A stretch of 12,717 nucleotides of DNA from IMG/VR virus record IMGVR_UViG_2681813421_000003. One strand, given 5' to 3'. The notes beneath the pieces were generated by a model. It was given only the letters and a program-made list of their open reading frames with translations, was not told the DNA's origin and searched no databases. Origin of the DNA: a virus. Lineage: Duplodnaviria > Heunggongvirae > Uroviricota > Caudoviricetes. This document shows, piece after piece, positions 147 to 11,042 of the stretch. Each line of letters begins with the position of its first letter. The stretch's first letter is position 1. Position numbers and translations under genes: made by a program.

Positions 147-1094
147 ATGAGCAGCAAGCTTCATGGTCTTGTCTGGGAAGGGTGTGCCTTCACCGGCATG
201 ATCTTATCCAGGGTGGCAGTTATGGCTCGCCTTGCAGATTACAGCAATGACGAAGGTGTGTCATGGCCTGCAGTGGAGACCATTCGTCGTCAGATTGGGG
301 CAAAGAGTGAATCAACGGTTAAAGCTGCGATAGCAGAACTGGAAAAGAACGGCTGGCTGACGAAGGAGGAACGTAAGGTCGGTGGGCGTAATGAAAGCAA
401 TATCTACCGTCTTAATGTGGAAAAACTCGAAGCAGCAGCAGCGGCGGCGCGTGAGGCATATAAACCGAAAAGAAAAATTAGCCAGGCAAAAAATGACCCG
501 TCAAATATTGCCCCCTCAACGGTTAACCCATCAAATTTTGATGGATCAACCGTTGATAAAAAACAGTCGGATAGGGGGGCGATGGTTGGCCCCGATCCGT
601 CAGTATTAAAACCTGATCCGTCAGATAAAAGATCTTTTCGTCCGGAAGCTTCGCAACCGGACATGCAGACGGCTGAACAGGATTTTTTAACCCGACACCC
701 TGACGCGGTTGTGTTCAGTGCGAAAAAACGCCAGTGGGGTAGCCAGGAAGATTTAGCGTGTGCGCAGTGGATCTGGGGGCGAATCGTGAGTCTTTACGAG
801 CAGGCCGCCAGCGATGATGGCGAGATTTCGCGACCGAAAGAACCCAACTGGACCGCATGGGCCAACGACGTGCGCACAATGCGGATGCTGGATGGCAGAA
901 CTCACAGACAAATTTGTGAAATGTTTGGTCGGGTGCAGCGGGATCCATTTTGGGTAAAAAATATCATGAGTCCGTCAAAGCTTCGCGAAAAATGGGATGA
1001 ACTGGTTATCCGCCTGGGGCGTTCGTCTGTACAGCGTTGTGTGAATCATATTTCTGAGCCGGATACCGAAATTCCGCCGGGATTCAGGGGGTGA
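147..1094 (+). CDS. phage replication initiation / primosomal protein (lambda O-like, DnaT-like), N-terminal helix-turn-helix
   Basis: 315-aa ORF with a GGAG Shine-Dalgarno 6 nt upstream. The N-terminus (…VSWPAVETIRRQIGAKSESTVKAAIAELEKNGWL…) is typical of phage replication-initiator HTH domains. It lies immediately upstream of a DnaC-like loader and contains iteron-like repeats internally, as lambda O does. From memory it resembles Rac YdaU. Confidence 0.8.
   Translation: MSSKLHGLVWEGCAFTGMILSRVAVMARLADYSNDEGVSWPAVETIRRQIGAKSESTVKAAIAELEKNGWLTKEERKVGGRNESNIYRLNVEKLEAAAAAAREAYKPKRKISQAKNDPSNIAPSTVNPSNFDGSTVDKKQSDRGAMVGPDPSVLKPDPSDKRSFRPEASQPDMQTAEQDFLTRHPDAVVFSAKKRQWGSQEDLACAQWIWGRIVSLYEQAASDDGEISRPKEPNWTAWANDVRTMRMLDGRTHRQICEMFGRVQRDPFWVKNIMSPSKLREKWDELVIRLGRSSVQRCVNHISEPDTEIPPGFRG
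495..630. repeat. iteron-like direct repeats, putative origin of replication embedded in the initiator gene
   Basis: Four ~16-bp related repeats: gacccgtcaaatattg (495-510), aacccatcaaattttg (525-540), gatccgtcagtattaa (594-609), gatccgtcagataaaa (615-630), plus the palindrome gatcaaccgttgat (544-557). An A/T-richer stretch follows. The arrangement mirrors ori-lambda inside gene O. Confidence 0.5.
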
Positions 1095-1100
1095 CGTGTC

Positions 1101-1847
1101 ATGAAAAACATTGCGGCAGGTGGTGTTCTTGAGCGTATCCGTAAGCTGGCCCCACAGCATGTAATCGCGCCGTACCGGACAGTGGACGAGTGGCGCGAGT
1201 GGCAACTAGCAGAAGGGCGAAAACGTAGCGAGGAAATCAACCGCCAGAATCGCCAGTTGCGGGTGGAAAAAATCCTGAATCGTTCGGGCATCCAGCCTCT
1301 GCACAGCAAATGCTCGTTTGCGAATTATCAGGTGCAGAATGACGGGCAAAAACACGCGCTGAGCCAGGCAAAATCCATCGCTGACGAACTGATGACCGGG
1401 TGCACGAATTTTGTGTTCAGCGGTAAGCCGGGTACCGGAAAGAACCACCTTGCAGCCGCCATTGGTAATCATCTTCTGGCGAAAGGTCGCAGCGTGATTG
1501 TGATAACGGTGGCTGATGTGATGCTGGCGTTACACAACAGCTACGACAACAAAAACTCAGGCGAAAAATTTTTACAGGGGTTGTGTGATGTTGACCTGCT
1601 TGTCCTGGATGAAATCGGAATGCAGCGGGATACGCGCAACGAGCAGGTCACGCTGAACCAGATAGTCGACCGCAGAACGGCTTCGATGCGCAGTGTCGGA
1701 ATGCTGACAAACCTGAACCACGTAGCGATGAGTACGCTTCTTGGTGAGCGTGTAATGGACCGCATGGTCATGAACGGTGGTCGCTGGGTGAATTTTAACT
1801 GGGAGAGCTGGCGTTCGAATGTCAGGCACCTGAGGGTTGTGAAGTAA
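1101..1847 (+). CDS. DnaC-like replicative helicase loader (AAA+ ATPase)
   Basis: 248 aa with a Walker A motif (FSGKPGTGKNHLAAAIG) and Walker B (DLLVLDEIG). It is colinear with E. coli DnaC from MKN… through …LGERVMDRM…NFNWESWRS. From memory it resembles Rac YdaV. Confidence 0.9.
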   Translation: MKNIAAGGVLERIRKLAPQHVIAPYRTVDEWREWQLAEGRKRSEEINRQNRQLRVEKILNRSGIQPLHSKCSFANYQVQNDGQKHALSQAKSIADELMTGCTNFVFSGKPGTGKNHLAAAIGNHLLAKGRSVIVITVADVMLALHNSYDNKNSGEKFLQGLCDVDLLVLDEIGMQRDTRNEQVTLNQIVDRRTASMRSVGMLTNLNHVAMSTLLGERVMDRMVMNGGRWVNFNWESWRSNVRHLRVVK

Positions 1848-1868
1848 TTTTGTCCGGAGGAAATTTTA

Positions 1869-2630
1869 ATGGAAACCGTTTTTGACGCACTGAAAGCAAT
1901 GGGAAAAGCCACATCCATAGAACTTGCTGCGCGACTTGATATCAGTCGTGAAGAAGTGCTGAACGAACTATGGGAACTGAAAAAGGCTGGTTTCGTTGAT
2001 AAAAGCGCGTACACCTGGCGTGTGGCTGATAACAACGTTCAGCAGGAACAGCCAGCGCAGGCAGAACTGCCGGAAGAAACCTCCACGGCGACAGTAGCGA
2101 AAATCTCAGAGTGCGATTTAACCGCGACGATTGAACAACACGGACCACAAACGGCTGATGAGCTGGCTACATTGTTTGGTACCACATCACGCAAAGTGGC
2201 TTCAACGCTGGCAATGGCAATCAGCAAAGGACGCCTGATTCGTGCAAATCAGGACGGTAAATTTCGTTACTGCATGCCGGGCGATAATTTACCAGCAGAG
2301 CCGAAAGCAGCATCGGTAGCGGAAACTGATGGTAAAGCCTTTCCTCAGCCTGCATGTGTTGCGTTACCAGTACAGGAGGCTGCAACACAGGAAGATATTA
2401 AAACAGAAACTGTGGCGGACATTGTGCAGTCGCTGCCATCGTTTACTGAAACGCGAGCGGATGACCTGGTTTTACCATCGCTGCATATGGCAAACCGCGA
2501 ACTGCGTCGGGCGAAAAGTCATGCCCAGAAGTGGGAACGAGTCTGCGCCGCGCTGCGGGAGCTGAACAAGCACCGGGATATTGTTCGACATATTTTCGAT
2601 TCCTCCAGTCATATTGTGTCGGAAAAGTGA
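1869..2630 (+). CDS. hypothetical phage protein with N-terminal winged-helix-like domain (YdaW-position gene)
   Basis: 253-aa ORF with GGAGG 8 nt upstream. The N-terminal ~45 aa (…[29 protein letters not shown]) look like a wHTH; the rest is acidic and low-complexity. No function can be assigned from sequence. Confidence 0.65.
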
Positions 2631-2646
2631 TTCCTGGGGAGGGCTT

Positions 2647-3069
2647 ATGGCAAAAGTTTTTACACAAGAAGAGCGAGAAAAAATTAAAGGGCAGGTTGTT
2701 GAACTCGTACGCCAGAGTGGGCGTGAGACGTTACGGCAACTGGAAGTCAAGACAGGTGCGACAAGATATCTGATGAGCGTTCTCGCAAGAGAGCTGGTTG
2801 CCAGCGGCGATGTATACAACTCTGGTTACGGGTTATTCCCGTCTGAACAGGCGCGTAAGGACTGGCAAAATGCCCGTAAAAAACTATCAAGGGCAAAGGT
2901 GAAGAAACCGGTTGTGGTTGATCCTGACCTTATCTGGTCATTACCCGACGGAGAAATACGTCGTTACGACAGGCGTCTGAACATAATCTGTCGCGAGTGC
3001 CGGAAGAGTGAGGTTATGCAGCGAGTGCTGGCGTTTTATCAGGGTAATTTTCAGGAGGTGATGGCGTGA
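2647..3069 (+). CDS. hypothetical nin-region-like protein
   Basis: The tracked ORF 2581-3069 was trimmed to the ATG at 2647, which has GGGGAGGG 4 nt upstream. 140 aa, basic, with a C-terminal ICRECRK motif. Its stop overlaps the next gene's start (GTGA). Confidence 0.55.
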   Translation: MAKVFTQEEREKIKGQVVELVRQSGRETLRQLEVKTGATRYLMSVLARELVASGDVYNSGYGLFPSEQARKDWQNARKKLSRAKVKKPVVVDPDLIWSLPDGEIRRYDRRLNIICRECRKSEVMQRVLAFYQGNFQEVMA

Positions 3070-3479
3070 GGGTGAGGGTTTATATCGCTGGTCCGATGAC
3101 CGGGTATAAAAATTTCAACCGTGAGGCGTTCCACAAGGCGGAAGAGGAACTGAAACGGGAAGGGCATACAGTCTTGAACCCGGCAGTACTTCCGGACGGG
3201 CTGACACAGCCACACTACATGGATATCTGCATGGCGATGATTCGTTGCGTGGATGCGATTTACATGCTGCAAGGCTGGCAGCGGTCAGCAGGCGCTAAAG
3301 CGGAACTGGCTCTGGCGGAGAAGCTAGGGCATGTGGTTGTTTTTCAGAGGGGGCGATATGCCGATTCTCTGGTTTCAGGAGGTGTGGGAAAAAGAAATGT
3401 GGGAAGGTCTTGTGATTGTGGCCGAAACAGTTCTTTTATTATGGTCTGTGATTGCGTGTATTTTTATGATTTATTGTGA
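3066..3479 (+). CDS. DUF4406-like / nucleoside 2-deoxyribosyltransferase-like protein
   Basis: GTG start with AGGAGG 8 nt upstream. The N-terminal ~95 aa (VYIAGPMTGYKNFNREAFHKAEEELKREGHTVLNPAVLP…GWQRSAGAKAELALAEKLGHVV) match the family. The reading frame then runs ~40 aa further than expected for this family. Confidence 0.6.
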   Translation: MRVRVYIAGPMTGYKNFNREAFHKAEEELKREGHTVLNPAVLPDGLTQPHYMDICMAMIRCVDAIYMLQGWQRSAGAKAELALAEKLGHVVVFQRGRYADSLVSGGVGKRNVGRSCDCGRNSSFIMVCDCVYFYDLL

Positions 3480-3483
3480 ATGA
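3358..3483 (+). CDS. putative small hydrophobic peptide (41 aa), unannotated short ORF
   Basis: ATG at 3358 with AGAGGGGG 4 nt upstream. Encodes MPILWFQEVWEKEMWEGLVIVAETVLLLWSVIACIFMIYCE, with one predicted transmembrane segment. It overlaps the 3' tail of the DUF4406 ORF in another frame. Below the 60-aa cut-off of the ORF track. Confidence 0.25.
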   Translation: MPILWFQEVWEKEMWEGLVIVAETVLLLWSVIACIFMIYCE

Positions 3484-3510
3484 TGTGAATCTCGCGGTGG
3501 CCACTGAATT

Positions 3511-3553
3511 GCAACCATTACCCCCTGTGATGTAATTGTGGGGTAATGGTTGC
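3511..3553. repeat. perfect 14-bp inverted repeat with 15-nt spacer (hairpin or protein-binding site)
   Basis: gcaaccattacccc (3511-3524) pairs with ggggtaatggttgc (3540-3553). No T-run follows, so it is not a canonical intrinsic terminator. It sits in the intergenic gap upstream of the 3587 gene. Confidence 0.6.
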
Positions 3554-3586
3554 GCAGGCATAGCGACAGGACTGGATGAGAAAAAT

Positions 3587-4009
3587 ATGACGAAATTTAC
3601 CAGAGAGCAATTGATTGCTCATGCTAATGAAAGTGTGAAATCCATGAAATTTGCTGCGCGACAGACCGTGTTTAAGACTTCAAGAGTTGCCATTGAAATG
3701 GATCTTGCGCTTGCCCGTATTGCGCTTGCCTCACTTGAAGCAATGCCAGTTGCATGGTCCTGTGCTCACAATATGGTTTTGTTCAATGCTGAATCTGTTG
3801 CGGCATACGCAAAACACTCAGCCATTGCGCCAAAACCCCTGTACGCTGCGCAACCGGCATCACTTTCACATGAGGAAGAGTTGACAATGCTGGTTAAACA
3901 ATTGGTAAGTCAGTTGAAAAAAGCGAAACCAGATTGCAAATTACCGGATATGGCGATGGGGTATCTGGAGCGGAATGGGCTGATAAGCGCGGAGGATGTT
4001 TTACGATGA
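3587..4009 (+). CDS. hypothetical phage protein
   Basis: The tracked ORF 3536-4009 was trimmed to the ATG at 3587 (MTKFTREQLIAHANE…), because the 3536 start lies inside the inverted repeat. 140 aa, with no recognisable motif. Confidence 0.5.
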   Translation: MTKFTREQLIAHANESVKSMKFAARQTVFKTSRVAIEMDLALARIALASLEAMPVAWSCAHNMVLFNAESVAAYAKHSAIAPKPLYAAQPASLSHEEELTMLVKQLVSQLKKAKPDCKLPDMAMGYLERNGLISAEDVLR

Positions 4010-4089
4010 CCTGGCCGGAGGCATTCACAACGACAGGAATTGCAATGGCGGCAGCACTTGTTGTGTATTCGATTTGCCGCTGGGGATAA
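4006..4089 (+). CDS. putative small hydrophobic peptide (27 aa), translationally coupled
   Basis: ATGA stop/start overlap with the upstream gene. Encodes MTWPEAFTTTGIAMAAALVVYSICRWG. Below the ORF-track cut-off; there is no homology evidence. Confidence 0.2.
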   Translation: MTWPEAFTTTGIAMAAALVVYSICRWG

Positions 4090-4096
4090 AAACGGT

Positions 4097-4124
4097 TTGC
4101 AGTGAAAGGGGAGTTAAGTAGAAT
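4097..4124 (+). promoter_or_regulatory. putative sigma70 promoter of the hok transcript
   Basis: TTGCAG (4097-4102), a 16-nt spacer, then TAGAAT (4119-4124). The predicted start near 4131 places the 5' end exactly at the segment that is complementary to the 3' end of the locus. Confidence 0.4.
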
Positions 4125-4300
4125 TGCTGCGGGTGCTTGAGGCTATCTGCCTCAGGCATGAACACCAAAAGGCAGATAGAGAAAAGCCCCAGTTAACATT
4201 ACGCGTCCTGCAAGACGCTTAACATTAATCTGAGGCTCAATCTATGTCTCACAAATGTAGGTTAGCCTCTTACGTGCCGAAAGGCAAGGAGAAGCAGGCT

Positions 4301-4456
4301 ATGAAGCAGCAAAAGGCGATGTTAATCGCCCTTATCGTCATCTGTTTAACCGTCATAGTGACGGCACTGGTAACGAGGAAAGACCTCTGCGAGGTACGAA
4401 TCCGAACCGGCCAGACGGAGGTCGCTGTCTTCACAGCTTACGAACCTGAGGAGTAA
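4301..4456 (+). CDS. hok: Hok/Gef-family type I toxin (small membrane-depolarising peptide)
   Basis: 51 aa, MKQQKAMLIALIVICLTVIVTALVTRKDLCEVRIRTGQTEVAVFTAYEPEE, with the hallmark transmembrane helix followed by the conserved Cys and the RTG motif. It matches HokD/RelF-type peptides from memory. AAGGAG lies 9 nt upstream. An in-frame upstream ATG at 4244, with a GAGG Shine-Dalgarno, would give a 70-aa mok-like extended product. Confidence 0.85.
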   Translation: MKQQKAMLIALIVICLTVIVTALVTRKDLCEVRIRTGQTEVAVFTAYEPEE

Positions 4457-4463
4457 GAGACCA

Positions 4464-4485
4464 GGCGAGGGAGAAATCCCTCGCC
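4464..4485 (+). other. stable stem-loop with GAAA tetraloop in the hok 3' UTR
   Basis: ggcgaggga (4464-4472), loop gaaa, tccctcgcc (4477-4485): a 9-bp stem directly after the hok stop codon. Confidence 0.6.
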
Positions 4486-4524
4486 ACCTCTGATGTGTCA
4501 GGCATCCTCAACGCACCCGCACTT

Positions 4525-4546
4525 AACCCGCTTCGGCGGGTTTTTC
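4525..4546 (+). terminator. intrinsic terminator (hok 3' end); first copy of a duplicated 20-mer
   Basis: Stem cccgc / gcggg with a ttcg loop (4527-4540), followed by TTTTT. The 20-mer aacccgcttcggcgggtttt (4525-4544) recurs identically at 5372-5391. Confidence 0.7.
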
Positions 4547-4671
4547 GTCGCATAATGAGGTTGTAATTTTAGCTACCATTAGACTATCCTAAGGATCTCA
4601 AACAGATCTATTTTGCATCAAATTTGGTGCATGGCTTTGCCAATAATCGGAAAACAAAAGGACTCATTAGT

Positions 4672-4851
4672 ATGAGCTGCCCACTCAAAAAACACACGCG
4701 GTTGAGTATTCCGCCTCGCGATAAAAGCGTTGTGGCAGTCCCTCGCCCAGCGATTGATGAAAACTGCGCACATCGTGAACAAGTGAAAAATGCTTTTGAT
4801 TTCGGTTTTTCTCGTTATGAGAAAGCCATGGAAGAACTTTCAAAAGTGTAA
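4672..4851 (+). CDS. putative antitoxin partner of the Doc-family toxin (unclassified small protein)
   Basis: 59 aa, from the ATG at 4672 with AAAGGA 9 nt upstream; the tracked ORF begins at 4624 but has no Shine-Dalgarno. It ends 18 nt before the Doc-family gene. Not obviously Phd/YefM-like, so the call rests on position only. Confidence 0.45.
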   Translation: MSCPLKKHTRLSIPPRDKSVVAVPRPAIDENCAHREQVKNAFDFGFSRYEKAMEELSKV

Positions 4852-4869
4852 TGATGGGTATTGTGCTCT

Positions 4870-5355
4870 ATGGCTGAGATTGTTGAAGGAGTGCATTACC
4901 TTACGGTTGATGATCTTGTTGAAATCAATCGTTCCCTAATTGAATTACAGACGCCAGATGAGCCCGTTGGTGTTCTGAGTCCAGATAACTTAAGTTCTTC
5001 TCAGGCCCGTCCCAGCATGGTTCGATGGTATGAACAGACTAATGACATGTTTGTACTGGCATCGGTATTGATTGAAAGTCTGATTCAGAATCATCCGTTT
5101 GCTAATGCGAACAAACGAACAGCTATGATGGCTGGTTACGTCTTCTTGTTGTTGAATGGCTATGAGTTAACAGCACCAGGCGATGAAATCGTGGAAATGG
5201 CAGAGGGACTGGCCTGCAAAACCTATACTCGAGAAGATCTCGAGAACTGGTTGTGTTATTGGTCTCGCGCGTATGACAGCCGGGAATTATGTAAAACAGG
5301 CGCAACTATTGTTTTGTATGAAACTATCAAGCTTAAAATAGAACAGCAAAACTAA
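4870..5355 (+). CDS. Doc/Fic-family (death-on-curing) toxin
   Basis: 161 aa containing HPFANANKRTA, which fits the Doc-type motif HxFx(D/N)(A/G)NKR. Overall size and layout are typical of Doc toxins. Confidence 0.8.
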   Translation: MAEIVEGVHYLTVDDLVEINRSLIELQTPDEPVGVLSPDNLSSSQARPSMVRWYEQTNDMFVLASVLIESLIQNHPFANANKRTAMMAGYVFLLLNGYELTAPGDEIVEMAEGLACKTYTREDLENWLCYWSRAYDSRELCKTGATIVLYETIKLKIEQQN

Positions 5356-5371
5356 AGGTGCTTCCAATGAA

Positions 5372-5398
5372 AACCCGCTTCGGCGGGTTTTGTTTTTT
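5372..5398 (+). terminator. intrinsic terminator after the Doc gene; second copy of the duplicated 20-mer
   Basis: Stem cccgc / gcggg with a ttcg loop (5374-5387), followed by ttttgtttttt. Identical 20-mer to 4525-4544. Confidence 0.7.
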
Positions 5399-5470
5399 CC
5401 TGGCATTCTGGTTTACAATTCGCACGCCAGCCTGAACAACTGGCACCTGCTGCGCCAGCAGAGACAACCG

Positions 5471-5743
5471 ATGGCGCACAAAAACAAATTTCACAATTCT
5501 GATACCGACCTTGCCATCCGGCACGGGCGGCGTTCACACGCATTTAAAACCGACTGGTACCAACACCCACCATGTACTGAAGAACAGGCCGAATGGCTAA
5601 TTCATAACTACCGCAGGCGCGGATACGAGGTTAAGAAAGCCCTCAGCCTCGATTATCGTCACTGGATAATCTATGTCAGGCTCCCTTATTCCGAACGCCC
5701 ACCGCGTCCGTCCCGCACATTCCAGCAACGCATCTGGAGGTAA
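5471..5743 (+). CDS. hypothetical basic protein (orphan ORF at a deletion junction)
   Basis: The tracked ORF 5390-5743 begins inside the terminator, so the first plausible start is the ATG at 5471 (MAHKNKFHNSD…), giving 90 aa. Weak Shine-Dalgarno and no recognisable domain. Confidence 0.35.
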   Translation: MAHKNKFHNSDTDLAIRHGRRSHAFKTDWYQHPPCTEEQAEWLIHNYRRRGYEVKKALSLDYRHWIIYVRLPYSERPPRPSRTFQQRIWR

Positions 5744-5748
5744 CGTGC

Positions 5749-6183
5749 GGGTATTACTTCGACCTGTTCCGGTATCCCAACGGCACTGTTGATGTTTTCC
5801 GTGGCTGGCTGAGCTCACTGGGTAAAACCATTGCCTCAAAAGACGTGATGACCCGCACTGTGAAAATCAGCGGTGTGGGGCGTCCACATCTGGCAGAGGA
5901 AGGCACTGAAACCGTGAGCGTTACCGGGCTGACAGTAGCACCGGCATCTGCCAGTGTAAGAGTGGGAGCAACCACCACGCTGACCTTTACAGTAAAACCT
6001 GACGAAGCCAGTGACAAAGCGATCAGTGTGCATTCGACAGATCCACAGACTGCCACGGTGACCCTGAACGGGCTTGTGGCCACGGTGAAAGGCGTGAAGC
6101 AGGGCAGTGTCAGTATTGTGGGCATGACTTCTGACGGCGATTTTGTGGCAGTGGCTACGGTGGCTGTCAGCGCCGCAGGTTAA
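5749..6183 (+). pseudogene. V: major tail protein V, N-terminally truncated remnant (C-terminal Ig-like/Big_2 part retained)
   Basis: Frame 1 translation …[38 protein letters not shown]… is colinear with lambda gpV (…[39 protein letters not shown]…) through to the C-terminal Ig-like domain. There is no start codon or N-terminal domain; the frame is open from 5635 but similarity begins only around 5750. Confidence 0.7.
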
Positions 6184-6203
6184 CAGGACGATACTCATCA
6201 TTT

Positions 6204-6228
6204 GCCCCGGTTATCCGGGGCTTTTTTG
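6204..6228 (+). terminator. hairpin + T-run between V remnant and G
   Basis: gccccgg ttat ccggggc followed by TTTTTT (6222-6227). Confidence 0.5.
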
Positions 6229-6240
6229 CAGGTGGAGAAC

Positions 6241-6630
6241 ATGATGTTTCTGAAACAGGACACGTTTAATTATGAAAAACAGTCCGTGGTGCTCAGTGAG
6301 CTGTCCGGGCTGCAGAGAATTGAATATCTGACGTTTGTTCAGCAGCGAACGGCAAAGTTTGATGCCGGGGAGGGAGAGCTGCCGGGGGCTGAACGACAGA
6401 TTGCTTTTCTGCGGATGGGGATGGATATCAATGCCTGGCTGGTTTCCCGCTCACTGTGGAATGCGGAACAGTCTCAGGATGTTGAGACGCTTTACGCATC
6501 CGTTATTACAACATGGTCGTATGATGCCCTGGGGGCGGGGGCAGAGATGGTTCTGTCGCTGAGCGGTATGGGAGCCATTGAGAATGCCGGGGATTTGGAG
6601 CATGAGGTGCTGACGCCGGAAAAGTCCTGA
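6241..6630 (+). CDS. G: tail assembly chaperone G
   Basis: MMFLKQDTFNYEKQSVVLSELSGLQRIEYL… aligns with lambda gpG (MFLKTESFEHNGVTVTLSELSALQRIEHL…). The tracked ORF was trimmed to the ATG at 6241; 6244 is an alternative start, with GGAG upstream. Confidence 0.85.
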   Translation: MMFLKQDTFNYEKQSVVLSELSGLQRIEYLTFVQQRTAKFDAGEGELPGAERQIAFLRMGMDINAWLVSRSLWNAEQSQDVETLYASVITTWSYDALGAGAEMVLSLSGMGAIENAGDLEHEVLTPEKS

Positions 6631-6968
6631 CGCGGGAAATGCAGTTTGTCATGCGGCTTGCCCGGGAGTTCCGGCGGGCAGACTGGCGGCGGATGCTGTC
6701 GGAAATGTCGGCCACTGAGCTTGGTGAGTGGGGCGATTATTTCCGGATGCAGAGCTTCAGTGATGTGTGGATGGATGCGCAGTTTGCCTCGCTGAAGGCA
6801 TTGATCGTGAGAATGGTGTCCGGCAGCAGTGATGCTGTGGTGGCTGATTTCAGCCTTTTACCGGAAGAGAACGGGATACCGGAGCGAACGGACGAAGAAC
6901 TGATGCATCTTGGGGAAGGTATTTCCGGAGGTGTGCGTTATGGACCAGATAGCCAACCTGGTCATTGA
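6618..6968 (+). CDS. T: tail assembly chaperone T segment, expressed as G-T fusion by -1 frameshift
   Basis: An ORF in the -1 frame relative to G overlaps the G 3' end with no stop between. A candidate slip site is G GAA AAG at 6618-6624, just before the G stop codon. The arrangement is the conserved lambda G/GT one. Confidence 0.6.
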   Translation, partial: GKVLTREMQFVMRLAREFRRADWRRMLSEMSATELGEWGDYFRMQSFSDVWMDAQFASLKALIVRMVSGSSDAVVADFSLLPEENGIPERTDEELMHLGEGISGGVRYGPDSQPGH

Positions 6969-9900
6969 TTTGGGGATTGATGCGGCAGAGTTTAAAAATG
7001 AAATTCCCCGTATCAAAAACCTTCTGAATGGTGCAGCCAGCGATGCAGAACGGTCTTCTGCCCGTATGCAGCGTTTTATGGAGCGTCAGACTCAGGCCGC
7101 CCGGCAGACAACGCAGGCGGCTTCTTCGGCTGCAACAGCCGCATCCGTCCATGCGCAGACGGTGGAGAAGAACGCACAGGCCCATGAACGCATGGCCCGT
7201 GAGGTGGAGCAAACCCGCCAGCGCATGGAGGCACTGAGCCAGAAAATGCGCGAGGAACAGGCGCAGGCCATGGCTCTGGCGGAGGCTCAGGATAAAGCGG
7301 CTGCTGCGTTTTATCGTCAGATTGACAGTGTGAAACAGGCCAGTGCGGGGCTGCAGGAATTACAGCGTATTCAGCAGCAGATCCGACAGGCCAGAAACAG
7401 CGGCGGGATTGGTCAGCAGGATTATCTGGCGCTGATTTCTGAGGTTACGGCGAAAACCCGTGTTCTTACACAGGCTGAGGAAGAGGCTACCCGACAGAAA
7501 GTGGCGTTTATCCGTCAGCTTAAAGAGCAGGCAACCCGCCAGAATCTTTCATCTTCTGAGTTGCTTCGCGCCAGGGCAGCCCAGCTGGGGGTAAGCGGTG
7601 CTGCAGAAGTGTATATCCGCAAAATGGAGCGGGCAGGAAAAGCCACGCATTCGCTGGGTCTGAAAAGTGCAGCAGCCCGCCAGGAGATAGGCGTTCTGAT
7701 AGGTGAACTGGCCCGCGGCAATTTAGGGGCGCTGAGGGGATCCGGGATAACGCTGGCTAACCGTGCCGGATGGATAGACACACTGATGTCACCGAAAGGC
7801 ATGATGCTTGGCGGGGTTATTGGCGGTATTGCCGCGGCCGTCTATGGTCTGGGTAAAGCCTGGTATGACGGTCAGAAGGAGGGGGAAGAATTTAACCGCC
7901 AGCTGTCGCTGACGGGGCATTATGCCGGAGTCACTGCCGGGCAGCTGTGGGTGCTCAGTCGTGCTATTTCCGGGAATGGTATCACGCAACATGCTGCAGC
8001 CGGTGCGCTGGCTCAGGTGGTGGGGAGTGGTGCATTTCGTGGAGGTGATATCGCCATGGTGGCGAAAGCTGCCGCGCAAATGGAACGTTCAGTGGGGCAG
8101 TCTGTCAGCGACACCATAAGTCAGTTTAAGCGACTGAAGGATGATCCGGTAAATGCAGCCAGGACGCTGGATAATGAACTGCATTTCCTGACTGCCACCC
8201 AGCTTGAACAAGTCCGTGTTCTCGGGGAACAGGGGCGTGCCAGTGATGCTGCCCGGATCGCCATGTCAGCGCTGGCAGAGGAAACCGGTAAACGCACATC
8301 TGATATTGATAATAATCTCAATGCGCTGGGCAGTACGCTGCAAACCTTATCTGACTGGTGGAAGCAGTTCTGGGATGCCGCCATGAATATCGGGCGTAAT
8401 GATTCCCTTGATGCGCAGATTGCGGCGCTGCAGGAAAAAATTCAGCGTGCGAAAAAATCGCCCTGGACAAATGCATCCACCACAGTGGAATACGACCAGC
8501 AGCGCCTTGATGAACTTCAGGAGAAAAAGCGCCAGAAAGATTTACAGGATGCAAAAGCGCAGGCTGAACGAAATTATCAGGAACAGCAGAAACGCCGGAA
8601 TGCTGAAAATGCTGCGCTGAACCGGATGAATGAAACGGAGGCGGCGCGACATCAACGTGAAATTGCGCGCATCAATGCCATGCAGTATGCCGACCAGGCG
8701 GTCAGGGACGCAGCGATACAGCGTGAAAATGAACGTTACAAAAAAGCCATTAAGAAAAAAACATCTGAAAACCGCAATGATGAAGCCACCCGGTTGCTGT
8801 TGCAGTACAGTCAGCAGCAGGCGCAGGTGGAGGGGCAGATTGCCGCCGCCAGACAGTCCGCGGGACTGACCACGGAAAAAATGACAGAGGCGCATAAGCA
8901 GCTTCTGGCCCTGCAGCAGCGTATCAGTGATCTGGCGGGTAAAAAGCTGACAGCAGATGAAAAAAGCGTGCTGGCGCATAAGGATGAGTTGATTCAGGCA
9001 CTGACGCTGCTGGATACAAAACAGCAGGAGCTGCAGAAGCAGACGGCGCTGAATGACCTGAAGAAAAAATCCATTCAGCTTGCCAGCCAGCTGGCGGAAG
9101 AGGAACGGGCTCTGCGTCAGCAACATGACCTGGATATCGCCACAACAGGGATGGGGGATAAACAGCGTCAGCGGTACCAGACACAGTTCAGTCTGCAACA
9201 GAAATATCAGCAGCAAATGGAGCAACTGGAGCGTGACAGTAAACAGAAAGGAACATACGGCTCAGATGAATACCGGGATGCTGAGCAGATGCTGACAGAC
9301 AGTCTTAACCGGCAACTGAACGAAAACAGACATTACTGGCAGGAGCAGGAACTGATGCAGGCAGACTGGAAAAACGGTGCCATGCGGGCGTTTCAGAATT
9401 TTACAGAGAGTGCGGATAACGCGGCAGGTACCGCTGAGCAGATGTTTACAGCGGCATTTAACAGCGCAGGTAATGCACTGGCGACGTTCTGCACCACCGG
9501 AAAACTGAACTTCAAATCTTTTACCGCCTCGCTCCTTTCTGATCTGGCAAAAATCATGTCGCAGATGGCCATGATGCAGGCGGTGAAGGGGATTGGTTCG
9601 GCGTTTGGCTGGGGGAGTGCAGCAGCTGCCAGTGTGACGCCAAATGCGGATGGCGGTGTTTATCAGTCTGCTGATTTGAGTCGCTACAGTGGCACGGTGG
9701 TTAACCGTCCGACGTTTTTTGCTTTTGCAAAAGGCGCGGGTGTGATGGGAGAAGCGGGGCCTGAAGCCATTCTGCCATTGCGTCGTGGTGCTGATGGCAA
9801 GCTGGGTGTTGTGGCGGATATTGGTGGTTCAGGTATGGTGATGTTTGCCCCGCAGTACAACATCGAGATCAATAACGATGGTACGAACGGGCAGATAGGT

Positions 9901-10005
9901 CCGGCTGCCCTGAAGGTGGTTTATGACCTCGGGAAAAAAGCAGCAGCGGACTTTATGCAACAGCAGGCCCGTGATGGTGGTCGGTTAAGTGGAGCATATC
10001 GGTAA
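6940..10005 (+). CDS. H: tail tape measure protein
   Basis: 1021 aa from the ATG at 6940 with GGAGG upstream. Long Q/A/R/E-rich coiled-coil body and a Gly-rich C-terminal region. It lies immediately after G-T and before M, as lambda H does. Confidence 0.9.
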   Translation: MDQIANLVIDLGIDAAEFKNEIPRIKNLLNGAASDAERSSARMQRFMERQTQAARQTTQAASSAATAASVHAQTVEKNAQAHERMAREVEQTRQRMEALSQKMREEQAQAMALAEAQDKAAAAFYRQIDSVKQASAGLQELQRIQQQIRQARNSGGIGQQDYLALISEVTAKTRVLTQAEEEATRQKVAFIRQLKEQATRQNLSSSELLRARAAQLGVSGAAEVYIRKMERAGKATHSLGLKSAAARQEIGVLIGELARGNLGALRGSGITLANRAGWIDTLMSPKGMMLGGVIGGIAAAVYGLGKAWYDGQKEGEEFNRQLSLTGHYAGVTAGQLWVLSRAISGNGITQHAAAGALAQVVGSGAFRGGDIAMVAKAAAQMERSVGQSVSDTISQFKRLKDDPVNAARTLDNELHFLTATQLEQVRVLGEQGRASDAARIAMSALAEETGKRTSDIDNNLNALGSTLQTLSDWWKQFWDAAMNIGRNDSLDAQIAALQEKIQRAKKSPWTNASTTVEYDQQRLDELQEKKRQKDLQDAKAQAERNYQEQQKRRNAENAALNRMNETEAARHQREIARINAMQYADQAVRDAAIQRENERYKKAIKKKTSENRNDEATRLLLQYSQQQAQVEGQIAAARQSAGLTTEKMTEAHKQLLALQQRISDLAGKKLTADEKSVLAHKDELIQALTLLDTKQQELQKQTALNDLKKKSIQLASQLAEEERALRQQHDLDIATTGMGDKQRQRYQTQFSLQQKYQQQMEQLERDSKQKGTYGSDEYRDAEQMLTDSLNRQLNENRHYWQEQELMQADWKNGAMRAFQNFTESADNAAGTAEQMFTAAFNSAGNALATFCTTGKLNFKSFTASLLSDLAKIMSQMAMMQAVKGIGSAFGWGSAAAASVTPNADGGVYQSADLSRYSGTVVNRPTFFAFAKGAGVMGEAGPEAILPLRRGADGKLGVVADIGGSGMVMFAPQYNIEINNDGTNGQIGPAALKVVYDLGKKAAADFMQQQARDGGRLSGAYR

Positions 10006-10343: not shown

Positions 10344-11042
10344 ATGCAGGATATTCCACAGGAAACACATCATGAGACGACACGCCTTACTCAGTCAGCC
10401 CAAGTGGTGCTCTGGGAAATCGATCTGACAGAGGTCGGTGGTGAACGTTATTTTTTCTGTAATGAGCAGAACGAAAAAGGTGAGCCGGTCACCTGGCAGG
10501 GGCGGCAGTATCAGGCATACCCCATTCAGGGGACGGGATTTGAACTGAACGGTAAGGGCAGTGCTGCCCGTCCGACACTGACGGTCTCTAACCTGCACGG
10601 CATGGTCACCGGGATGGCGGAAGACCTGCAGAGTCTGGTCGGCGGAACGGTGGTCAGGCGTAAGGTTTACGCCCGCTTTCTGGATGCGGTGAACTTCGTC
10701 AACGGAAACAGCGACGCCGATCCGGAGCAGGAGGTGATCAGCCGCTGGCGCATCGAGCAGTGTAGCGAACTGAGTGCGGTCAGTGCCTCCTTTGTGCTCT
10801 CCACACCGACGGAAACGGATGGTGCTGTTTTTCCGGGGCGCATCATGCTGGCCAACACCTGCACCTGGACCTATCGCGGCGATGAGTGCGGTTATCACGG
10901 TCCGGCTGTCGCTGATGAATATGACCAGCCGACGTCCGATATCACGAAGGATAAATGCAGCAAATGCCTGAGTGGTTGTAAGTTTCGCAATAACGTCGGC
11001 AACTTTGGCGGCTTCCTTTCCATTAACAAACTTTCGCAGTAA
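10344..11042 (+). CDS. L: minor tail protein L (Fe-S cluster tail tip protein)
   Basis: 232 aa with AGGAGG 5 nt upstream. It carries the conserved C-terminal cysteine cluster (CTWTYRGDECGYHG … CSKCLSGCKF). Confidence 0.9.
   Translation: MQDIPQETHHETTRLTQSAQVVLWEIDLTEVGGERYFFCNEQNEKGEPVTWQGRQYQAYPIQGTGFELNGKGSAARPTLTVSNLHGMVTGMAEDLQSLVGGTVVRRKVYARFLDAVNFVNGNSDADPEQEVISRWRIEQCSELSAVSASFVLSTPTETDGAVFPGRIMLANTCTWTYRGDECGYHGPAVADEYDQPTSDITKDKCSKCLSGCKFRNNVGNFGGFLSINKLSQ

Follow-up and report, generated by a model that had tools for sequence, protein, structure and literature searches.

Organization of the small-ORF locus

The window analysed here is the whole stretch of 12,717 nucleotides from a tailed-phage record of IMG/VR (IMGVR_UViG_2681813421_000003). 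At positions 4006-4089 of its plus strand lies a small open reading frame (ORF) of 27 codons, closed by a TAA stop at 4087-4089, which encodes the peptide MTWPEAFTTTGIAMAAALVVYSICRWG. The ATG of the small ORF (4006-4008) overlaps the TGA (4007-4009) of the preceding gene, forming on the plus strand the ATGA start/stop junction at 4006-4009 that an earlier, sequence-only reading had described. A Shine-Dalgarno core (GGAGG, 3991-3995, plus strand) is located 10 nt 5′ of the ATG, and the ribosome-binding site is thus encoded in the final codons of the upstream gene. Codons 2 and 3 are spanned by a Dcm site (CCTGG, 4010-4014, plus strand). The hok promoter, TTTGCA-17-TAGAAT (4096-4124, plus strand), is the sole sigma-70-like site on this strand near the small ORF; its -35 box lies 6 nt beyond the stop codon, and on the 3′ side it delimits the small-ORF module, to which it is a neighbour and not a functional part. 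The Rfam hok/sok model matches 4131-4306, and the hok coding sequence occupies 4301-4456.

The upstream gene (3587-4009, plus strand; PGAP CDS WP_001397096.1) is an early accessory gene that encodes a hypothetical protein of 140 amino acids. The N-terminus of this protein resembles those of ead/Ea22-type proteins, and the protein matches PHROG 660, a family of unknown function, at 3.9e-47, while searches of Pfam and NCBIfam gave no match. The setting is the early-right (nin-type) region, with replication genes and DUF1627, DUF977 and DUF4406 genes upstream of the small ORF and with hok, a Doc-family toxin gene and the start of a DUF968 gene downstream. Positions 500-5774 of the window are identical to a prophage of the ETEC O6:H16 strain 2014EL-1346-6, in which PGAP annotates the upstream gene and hokD and skips the small ORF. 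The 27-codon hydrophobic ORF is therefore present and unannotated, as had been noted. The 1.5 kb around it contain 28 ORFs of at least 20 amino acids, so that an ORF of 27 codons is unremarkable on its own and comparative data are needed to judge it.

Several other features of the window deserve mention. The DUF4406 gene (3066-3479) is called a pseudogene without C-terminus by PGAP in the identical prophage, and its frame in the window runs on into an unrelated hydrophobic tail (…SSFIMVCDCVYFYDLL). Toxin-antitoxin-type modules are clustered at 4131-5355, comprising hok/sok (4131-4456) and the Doc (death-on-curing) toxin (4870-5355); a separate small ORF at 4672-4851 precedes the latter and could be its antitoxin. 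In other phages (ArgO145, ETEC4079), the position of the Doc toxin is occupied by RelE/ParE-ParD. The complete identity to the ETEC prophage ends at 5774, and at the 5774/5775 junction (region 5745-6200) the 5′ end of the DUF968 gene meets tail genes, namely an Ig-like tail protein fragment (5845-6183), tail chaperones (6202-6968) and the tape measure gene (6910-10005). Among the complete E. coli genomes of the collection, none bridges 5774/5775; the junction represents either a large deletion that removed Q and the lysis, terminase and head genes, leaving a defective prophage, or an assembly join.

Coupling to the upstream gene

IMG/VR, phage records and genomes together supplied a family set of 198 instances of the small ORF. 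In all 198 copies it joins the upstream gene tightly; 169 carry the ATGA overlap, 17 a 1-nt overlap (TGATG or TAATG) and 12 a 4-nt gap. Every copy starts with ATG, and a Shine-Dalgarno core is present in 196, most often as AGGAGG at a spacing of 7 (152 copies) or as GGAGG at a spacing of 10 (29 copies). The unrelated proteins encoded upstream have a common sequence limited to their last residues, QEVNQ*, and these are the codons of the Shine-Dalgarno sequence, spelling AGGAGGTGA. The constancy of the junction supports, at the level of sequence, the translational coupling that had been proposed from the single overlap. RNA folds around the Shine-Dalgarno site are no more stable than those of shuffled sequence (z-score 0.1-0.9), and the site is not hidden.

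Two further possibilities were considered for this junction and rejected. A structured RNA is not indicated, as the stability of the local fold equals the level of shuffled sequence. An obligate partnership with the upstream protein does not fit the finding of one peptide behind different upstream families, nor the occurrence of upstream genes without the small ORF. In 26 of 118 cases, a sequence unrelated to the small ORF comes after the tail of a gene of the type found in the window, which shows that the upstream gene is independent of it.

Mosaic genomic contexts

The boundaries of the small ORF become apparent when the window is compared with related phages. In O157:H7 prophages, a copy with 25 of 27 identical residues follows an unrelated DUF551 gene with the ATGA overlap retained, and the ATG (position 4006) is the exact point from which the DNA is homologous to the window. 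Chromosomal hok loci are homologous only from 4084 onwards, where the small ORF comes to its end, and they lack the small ORF itself, which places it outside the ancestral hok/sok module. Phage 933W carries a 73%-identical copy between L0139 and sokW/hokW. In ArgO145, BP-4795, PhiR12_1 and TH18, by contrast, hok is absent downstream; the small ORF is preceded by EaA/Ea22/DUF551-type genes, and xis/int, other genes or a terminator follow it.

In the 198 instances, the proteins encoded upstream fall into 6 clusters, and no fewer than 19 unrelated contexts occur downstream. The small ORF precedes a small gene on the xis/int side in 70 instances and the hok promoter directly in 54, and several instances lie immediately before intrinsic terminators; overall, roughly a quarter to a third of the sampled copies precede hok. 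A single peptide variant can be preceded by three or more types of upstream tail and followed by five or more different contexts. The block common to these different contexts extends from the Shine-Dalgarno sequence through the stop codon, and the sequence comparison establishes that the small ORF moves among phage genomes as a unit with these limits, independently of both neighbours. A functional link to hok was rejected in view of the many contexts without hok and of the chromosomal hok homology that begins only at 4084. The small ORF is not a component of hok/sok. Its location directly upstream of the hok promoter, to which the sequence-only reading had drawn attention, is correct as a position, but the adjacency is incidental. 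An element of the prophage that lies next to hok/sok can thus be treated as an independent gene outside that system.

Two neighbouring ORFs were noticed in the course of this comparison. At some loci (for example L015, approximately 10476-10620), a second small hydrophobic ORF, MSDDISLAMEGALAVIVVVGVYCLVVLLMDRLGS, occurs within about 35 nt after the small ORF, and in one protein (P0038), loss of the stop codon has fused the two; the second ORF could be another unannotated membrane microprotein. In the record of Stx2 converting phage I, ORF-38 (L223, 201-950) is a 750-nt antisense ORF that covers L0139 together with the small ORF and the hok promoter. It appears to be over-annotated rather than a gene, given that the record holds 196 features in 62 kb.

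Distribution

A blastn search of 5426 complete E. coli genomes with the 84 bases of the small ORF returned a match in 1610 of them and a full-length match in 1609. At least 1610 of these 5426 genomes, approximately 30% to a third, thus carry the family, often in several copies and with as many as 7 per genome. Plasmids account for 163 of the places in the complete E. coli genomes, and the carriers are P1-like or other phage-plasmids with ead/Ea22/DUF551 clusters. The family is also present in Stx phages such as 933W and those of the VT2-Sakai type, and a 24-residue variant with a TAATG overlap, MSWPEAFAIVGVAMAIAAIFIFWG, is found in the P1-like Salmonella phage SJ46. The K-12 cryptic prophages CPS-53, Rac, Qin and DLP12 contain no copy, so that ribosome-profiling data from K-12 are unusable for the small ORF.

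A pattern scan of 185,579 species, each represented by one genome, identified true members in Escherichia and Shigella only. The other matches were three chance hits and two tiny non-enteric contigs that look like contamination. These contigs, one of 431 bp assigned to Xanthomonas pisi (L206) and one of 369 bp assigned to Acinetobacter idrijaensis (L211), encode peptides identical to variants from E. coli phages or viral contigs, that of X. pisi matching the 933W copy, and they most likely represent E. coli or phage contamination of the assemblies.

Selection on the encoded peptide

The 198 instances comprise 66 distinct DNA versions encoding 40 peptides, each of 27 residues, with the consensus M-[T/S/N]-W-P-[E/D]-A-F-T-T-V-G-I-A-M-A-V-A-L-V-V-Y-S-I-C-R-W-G. 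Residues W3, P4, A6, G11, A15, R25 and W26 are near-invariant, and Y21, S22, I23 and C24 are strongly preferred. When substitutions were counted on a minimum-spanning tree over the 66 DNA versions, 51, 50 and 145 fell on codon positions 1, 2 and 3, respectively. The synonymous fraction is 0.52 against an expected 0.24 (binomial p = 8e-21), and it is 0.49 against 0.27 (p = 3e-11) for codons 7-24, which were unconstrained by the search patterns; both p-values are rough, as the tree is an approximation and the sequences are related and recombining. In the two other forward frames, the synonymous fraction is 0.16-0.18, and stop codons interrupt nearly all sequences. Amino-acid replacements in the frame of the small ORF are conservative, with a mean BLOSUM62 score of +0.40 compared to values from -0.39 to -1.04 in other frames.

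The antisense frame that shares the wobble position has an equal synonymous excess and is open in 64 of the 66 versions. However, its mean BLOSUM62 score is -0.39 and its start and stop are not conserved across contexts. Antisense coding is rejected on these two grounds alone, the non-conservative replacements and the unconserved boundaries.

Family sequences differ at about 40% of their synonymous sites yet keep the length of the ORF. Conservation of the reading frame across homologous prophages, which had been suggested as a check, is hence borne out by the third-position excess, the synonymous fraction and the conservative replacements, together with the retained length, start, Shine-Dalgarno sequence and stop. 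The substitution pattern demonstrates, as far as such comparison reaches, that the small ORF is under purifying selection at the amino-acid level, and it is highly probable that 4006-4089 is a true gene, by which lambda-like phages and prophages encode a very small membrane peptide.

Intact copies and null alleles

Frame disruption in close homologues had been named in advance as an observation that would speak against a gene. To estimate its frequency, samples were anchored on the tail of the upstream gene alone and were not conditioned on the small ORF. With the DUF551-type tail (CARGAGGTGAAYCAATGA), 116 of 120 usable sites are followed by an intact 27-codon ORF, one by a copy whose third codon is a stop and three by unrelated sequence. 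With the tail type of the window (GGAGGATRTTTTACGATGA), 118 usable sites yielded 85 intact copies, 26 unrelated sequences and 7 disrupted copies, of which two have a nonsense codon at position 3, four a one-base deletion in codon 2 and one a stop-loss extension. Taken together, 201 of 209 family copies (116/117 and 85/92; 96%) are intact, and the eight that are not consist of three nonsense, four frameshift and one stop-loss alleles. The frame is therefore largely preserved, but disrupted copies do exist at about 4%, all of them at codons 2-3. This is the level to be expected of decaying prophages and falls short of refuting a coding function. The null copies, together with the upstream genes that sometimes lack the small ORF, indicate that it is dispensable.

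Every null allele strikes the ACC-TGG of codons 2-3, by a change of TGG to TAG or to TGA or by loss of one C (L009 1501-1584, L230, L315, L240, L246 and L213). The codon-3 TAG alleles are found in POCJ13 and in IMG/VR copies. The sequence ACCTGGCC contains the Dcm site. Deamination of 5-methylcytosine at CCWGG is a mutational hotspot, and an event on the bottom strand turns TGG into TAG; the Dcm site at 4010-4014 is likely to be the hotspot behind the recurrent TGG-to-TAG alleles. It accounts neither for the one-base deletion, which recurs on at least two backgrounds, nor for the finding that no null mutations further 3′ were seen.

Complete E. coli genomes also contain the same one-base deletion, an in-frame six-base deletion that leaves 25 amino acids, and a stop-loss allele of 44 amino acids. 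In the stop-loss allele, found in E. coli S163-2 (L215, 601-735), TAA has changed to CAA and the ORF extends to 44 codons. This is the sole form annotated by PGAP (WP_258188236.1), and since the 27-codon form is skipped, the omission is an effect of length. The suggestion that a small membrane peptide had been missed by annotation is well founded in this respect, and the family provides a well-supported case of what is lost when annotation pipelines discard ORFs of fewer than 30 codons.

Database and literature status

Sequence searches of Pfam, PHROGs, NCBIfam, PADLOC and the PDB returned no significant match to the peptide. When four family variants were run against Pfam with E-values up to 1, only compositional, sub-threshold matches to DUF883_C and B12D were obtained, and the Hok/Gef profile PF01848 was not matched by any of the four. 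The best NCBIfam match, KdpF (TIGR02115), scores 13.4 bits (E = 0.061) and so lies below the cut-off of 26.85. When four variants were joined into one query for a protein search, the only matches were sporadic fusions created by deletion, frameshift or stop loss. Two exact variants are present in GenBank under the names ‘bacteriophage protein’ or ‘prophage protein’, and some records name the peptide ‘DUF551 domain-containing protein’. A DUF551 identity was rejected, as the peptide has no Pfam match and the sequences of neighbouring DUF551 proteins do not contain it; the label is an artefact of clustering or of name transfer from these neighbours.

The peptide strings are absent from the searchable full-text literature and from the supplements of the Sakai small-gene and Enterobacteriaceae microproteome studies. 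The published Ribo-seq screen of Sakai covered ORFs of at least 30 amino acids, a range that does not include the 27-codon family, and a review-type modelling paper on the exo-xis region does not mention a transmembrane small ORF. The gene is thus missing from RefSeq annotation, Pfam, PHROGs and NCBIfam, and yet it is carried by medically important Stx phages and by P1-like phage-plasmids.

Membrane character and proposed action

The peptide had been described as a single short hydrophobic helix. The mean Kyte-Doolittle hydropathy of its 19-residue core is 1.73 in the window, which is consistent with one transmembrane helix, and ranges from 1.71 to 2.76 in the family, with a median of 2.16. 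By the Hessa scale, the family median of the sum is approximately 0, and the variant of the window, at +1.45, is the least hydrophobic of the family. A hydrophobic stretch of about 19 residues that exceeds the Kyte-Doolittle threshold, with interfacial aromatic or charged flanks (W3, Y21, R25 and W26), is predicted throughout the family, as expected for a single membrane span.

These properties suggest the following course of events. Ribosomes that terminate on the upstream early accessory gene could reinitiate on the small ORF via the ATGA junction, and the peptide would then insert into the inner membrane as a single helix of approximately residues 6-24. The acidic N-terminus (TWPE) and the C-terminal arginine suggest, by the positive-inside rule, an N-out/C-in topology, with the N-terminus in the periplasm and the C-terminal Arg-Trp-Gly in the cytoplasm. 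Trp3 on one side and Tyr21 and Trp26 on the other would be placed at the two membrane interfaces. Co-transcription with nin-region or exo-xis/ea22-type accessory genes suggests that the peptide acts early after infection or induction; exo-xis/ea22 genes are described as among the earliest transcribed in two reports (PMC10834534, PMC8614690). A face of small residues (Gly11, Ala13, Ala15, Ala17) and the conserved termini may pack against a larger membrane protein of host or phage. A tolerant core between sharply conserved ends (M-x-W-P-E-A and Y-S-I-C-R-W-G), together with such a face, fits specific binding better than a membrane-damaging toxin. By analogy with known bacterial single-helix microproteins, the peptide would modulate its larger partner.

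Overall, we regard it as probable that the small ORF encodes a translationally coupled, selected, 27-residue single-span microprotein of the inner membrane, expressed early and modulating a membrane protein, independently of hok/sok and of any particular upstream protein. A narrower proposal, to which we give a low probability, is that the peptide is a phage effector directed at a specific inner-membrane machine, where it might block superinfection, disarm an abortive-infection or toxin system, or shift the balance between lysis and lysogeny together with ea22-type genes. If true, a new family of exclusion or counter-defence microproteins would be encoded by the major Shiga-toxin phages and by roughly one in three E. 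coli genomes. The gene is in any case a defined candidate for small-protein studies, as it offers natural amber alleles, a compact unit and an inducible native context.

Alternative explanations

A first alternative accepts the peptide as real but assigns it to the type I-like toxins such as Ibs, ShoB, TisB, DinQ and Hok, which would depolarise or permeabilise the inner membrane once the early operon is switched on. Size and overall hydrophobicity are the same as in type I toxins, and the window contains a run of toxin-antitoxin modules (hok/sok, 4131-4456; Doc-family toxin, 4870-5355). The known null alleles, moreover, all abolish the peptide at codons 2-3, as counter-selection of a harmful product would have it; the Dcm hotspot, however, would account for the TAG alleles. 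No antisense RNA was found, as the Rfam search gives sok alone (4131-4306), outside the small ORF, and no dedicated folded mRNA is apparent from a local fold that is no more stable than shuffled sequence. Type I toxins are tightly silenced, whereas the small ORF is, in each of the 198 copies, coupled to accessory genes of an ordinary kind, and 96% of copies are intact in lysogens. The core is rich in Ala, Gly and Thr and only moderately hydrophobic, and conservation is specific to the termini. We consider a toxin improbable.

Alternatively, translation itself may matter while the peptide has no function: ribosomes kept on the 3′-terminal part of the early mRNA would prevent polarity caused by Rho or influence the next terminator or promoter. 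The small ORF is indeed very short and always lies 3′ of a gene to which it is tightly coupled, and in many cases an intrinsic terminator or the hok promoter comes immediately after it. However, a spacer of this kind would accept any sense codons and a variable length, which does not agree with the selection on amino acids, the near-invariant residues, the conservative replacements and the fixed number of 27 codons, and the elements downstream are of at least 19 unrelated kinds. The chance that this explanation is correct appears slim.

It is very unlikely that the small ORF is untranslated and that the conserved 100 bp represent a DNA boundary or linker aiding recombination between phage modules, or a hitch-hiking remnant. 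Such a role would agree with the mosaic breakpoints at both ends of the small ORF, its absence from the annotation of most records and the disruption of some copies. Three-base periodicity of substitutions and conservative replacements are, however, not expected of a linker, nor would a linker conserve the ATG, the Shine-Dalgarno sequence, the stop and the ORF length despite about 40% divergence at synonymous sites.

Programmed -1 ribosomal frameshifting, by which the hydrophobic segment would be added to the upstream protein as a C-terminal membrane anchor, has hardly any probability: the small ORF does lie in the -1 frame of the upstream gene, a frame that in the window has no stop over the preceding 24 codons, and is joined to this gene in sporadic natural deletion or frameshift fusions (P0031-P0035), but these fusions are rare accidents of 1-11 member sequences, a slippery heptamer occurs in 8 of 85 distinct upstream contexts with none conserved, in-frame stops precede the ATG by 1-5 codons in some contexts, and the ATG and Shine-Dalgarno sequence are conserved.

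Comparison with known systems

Our preferred reading of the small ORF as a gene for a partner-modulating membrane microprotein can be set against four kinds of known systems. With the type I toxins Hok/Gef, Ibs, ShoB, TisB and DinQ, the peptide shares its small size and hydrophobicity, and Hok (4301-4456) is encoded 200 nt downstream. It differs from them in that it has no Hok match in Pfam and that neither an antisense RNA nor a fold-back mRNA was found; it is coupled to ordinary early genes, mostly without hok, and is absent at chromosomal hok loci.

The regulatory leader or arrest peptides of the TnaC and SecM type are likewise encoded by very short ORFs, and the conserved Trp and Pro and the C-terminal motif of the phage peptide are reminiscent of them, as is the way in which the small ORF stops shortly ahead of a regulatory element, the hok promoter in the window and terminators in other contexts. 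However, the small ORF lies 3′ of a gene and not ahead of a regulated one, its body corresponds to a transmembrane-like helix, and what follows it belongs to at least 19 unrelated kinds of element.

T4 Imm, P22 SieA and HK97 gp15 are membrane proteins through which phages exclude superinfection, and they belong to a group that targets the envelope of the host either early or in the lysogenic state. Like these, the small ORF is a non-essential phage accessory gene with a predicted membrane location of its product and a mosaic distribution, but the exclusion proteins are several-fold larger and unrelated in sequence, and PADLOC gave no match to the peptide.

The small single-helix inner-membrane proteins of E. 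coli include YohP (27 amino acids), YpdK (23), KdpF (29), MgtS (31) and AcrZ (49). Proteins of this type were found by comparative genomics and ribosome-binding-site models, and those that have been studied bind and modulate larger membrane proteins. There is no sequence relationship with the phage peptide, the closest being KdpF (TIGR02115) with 13.4 bits against 26.85, and the genes of the E. coli proteins are chromosomal, whereas the small ORF is mosaic, phage-borne and coupled to an upstream gene. The likeness lies in a length of 20-50 amino acids, one helix with aromatic or charged flanks, a Shine-Dalgarno sequence and omission by gene callers. The peptide is in this sense an undescribed family of a well-known kind, that of the small single-helix membrane proteins.
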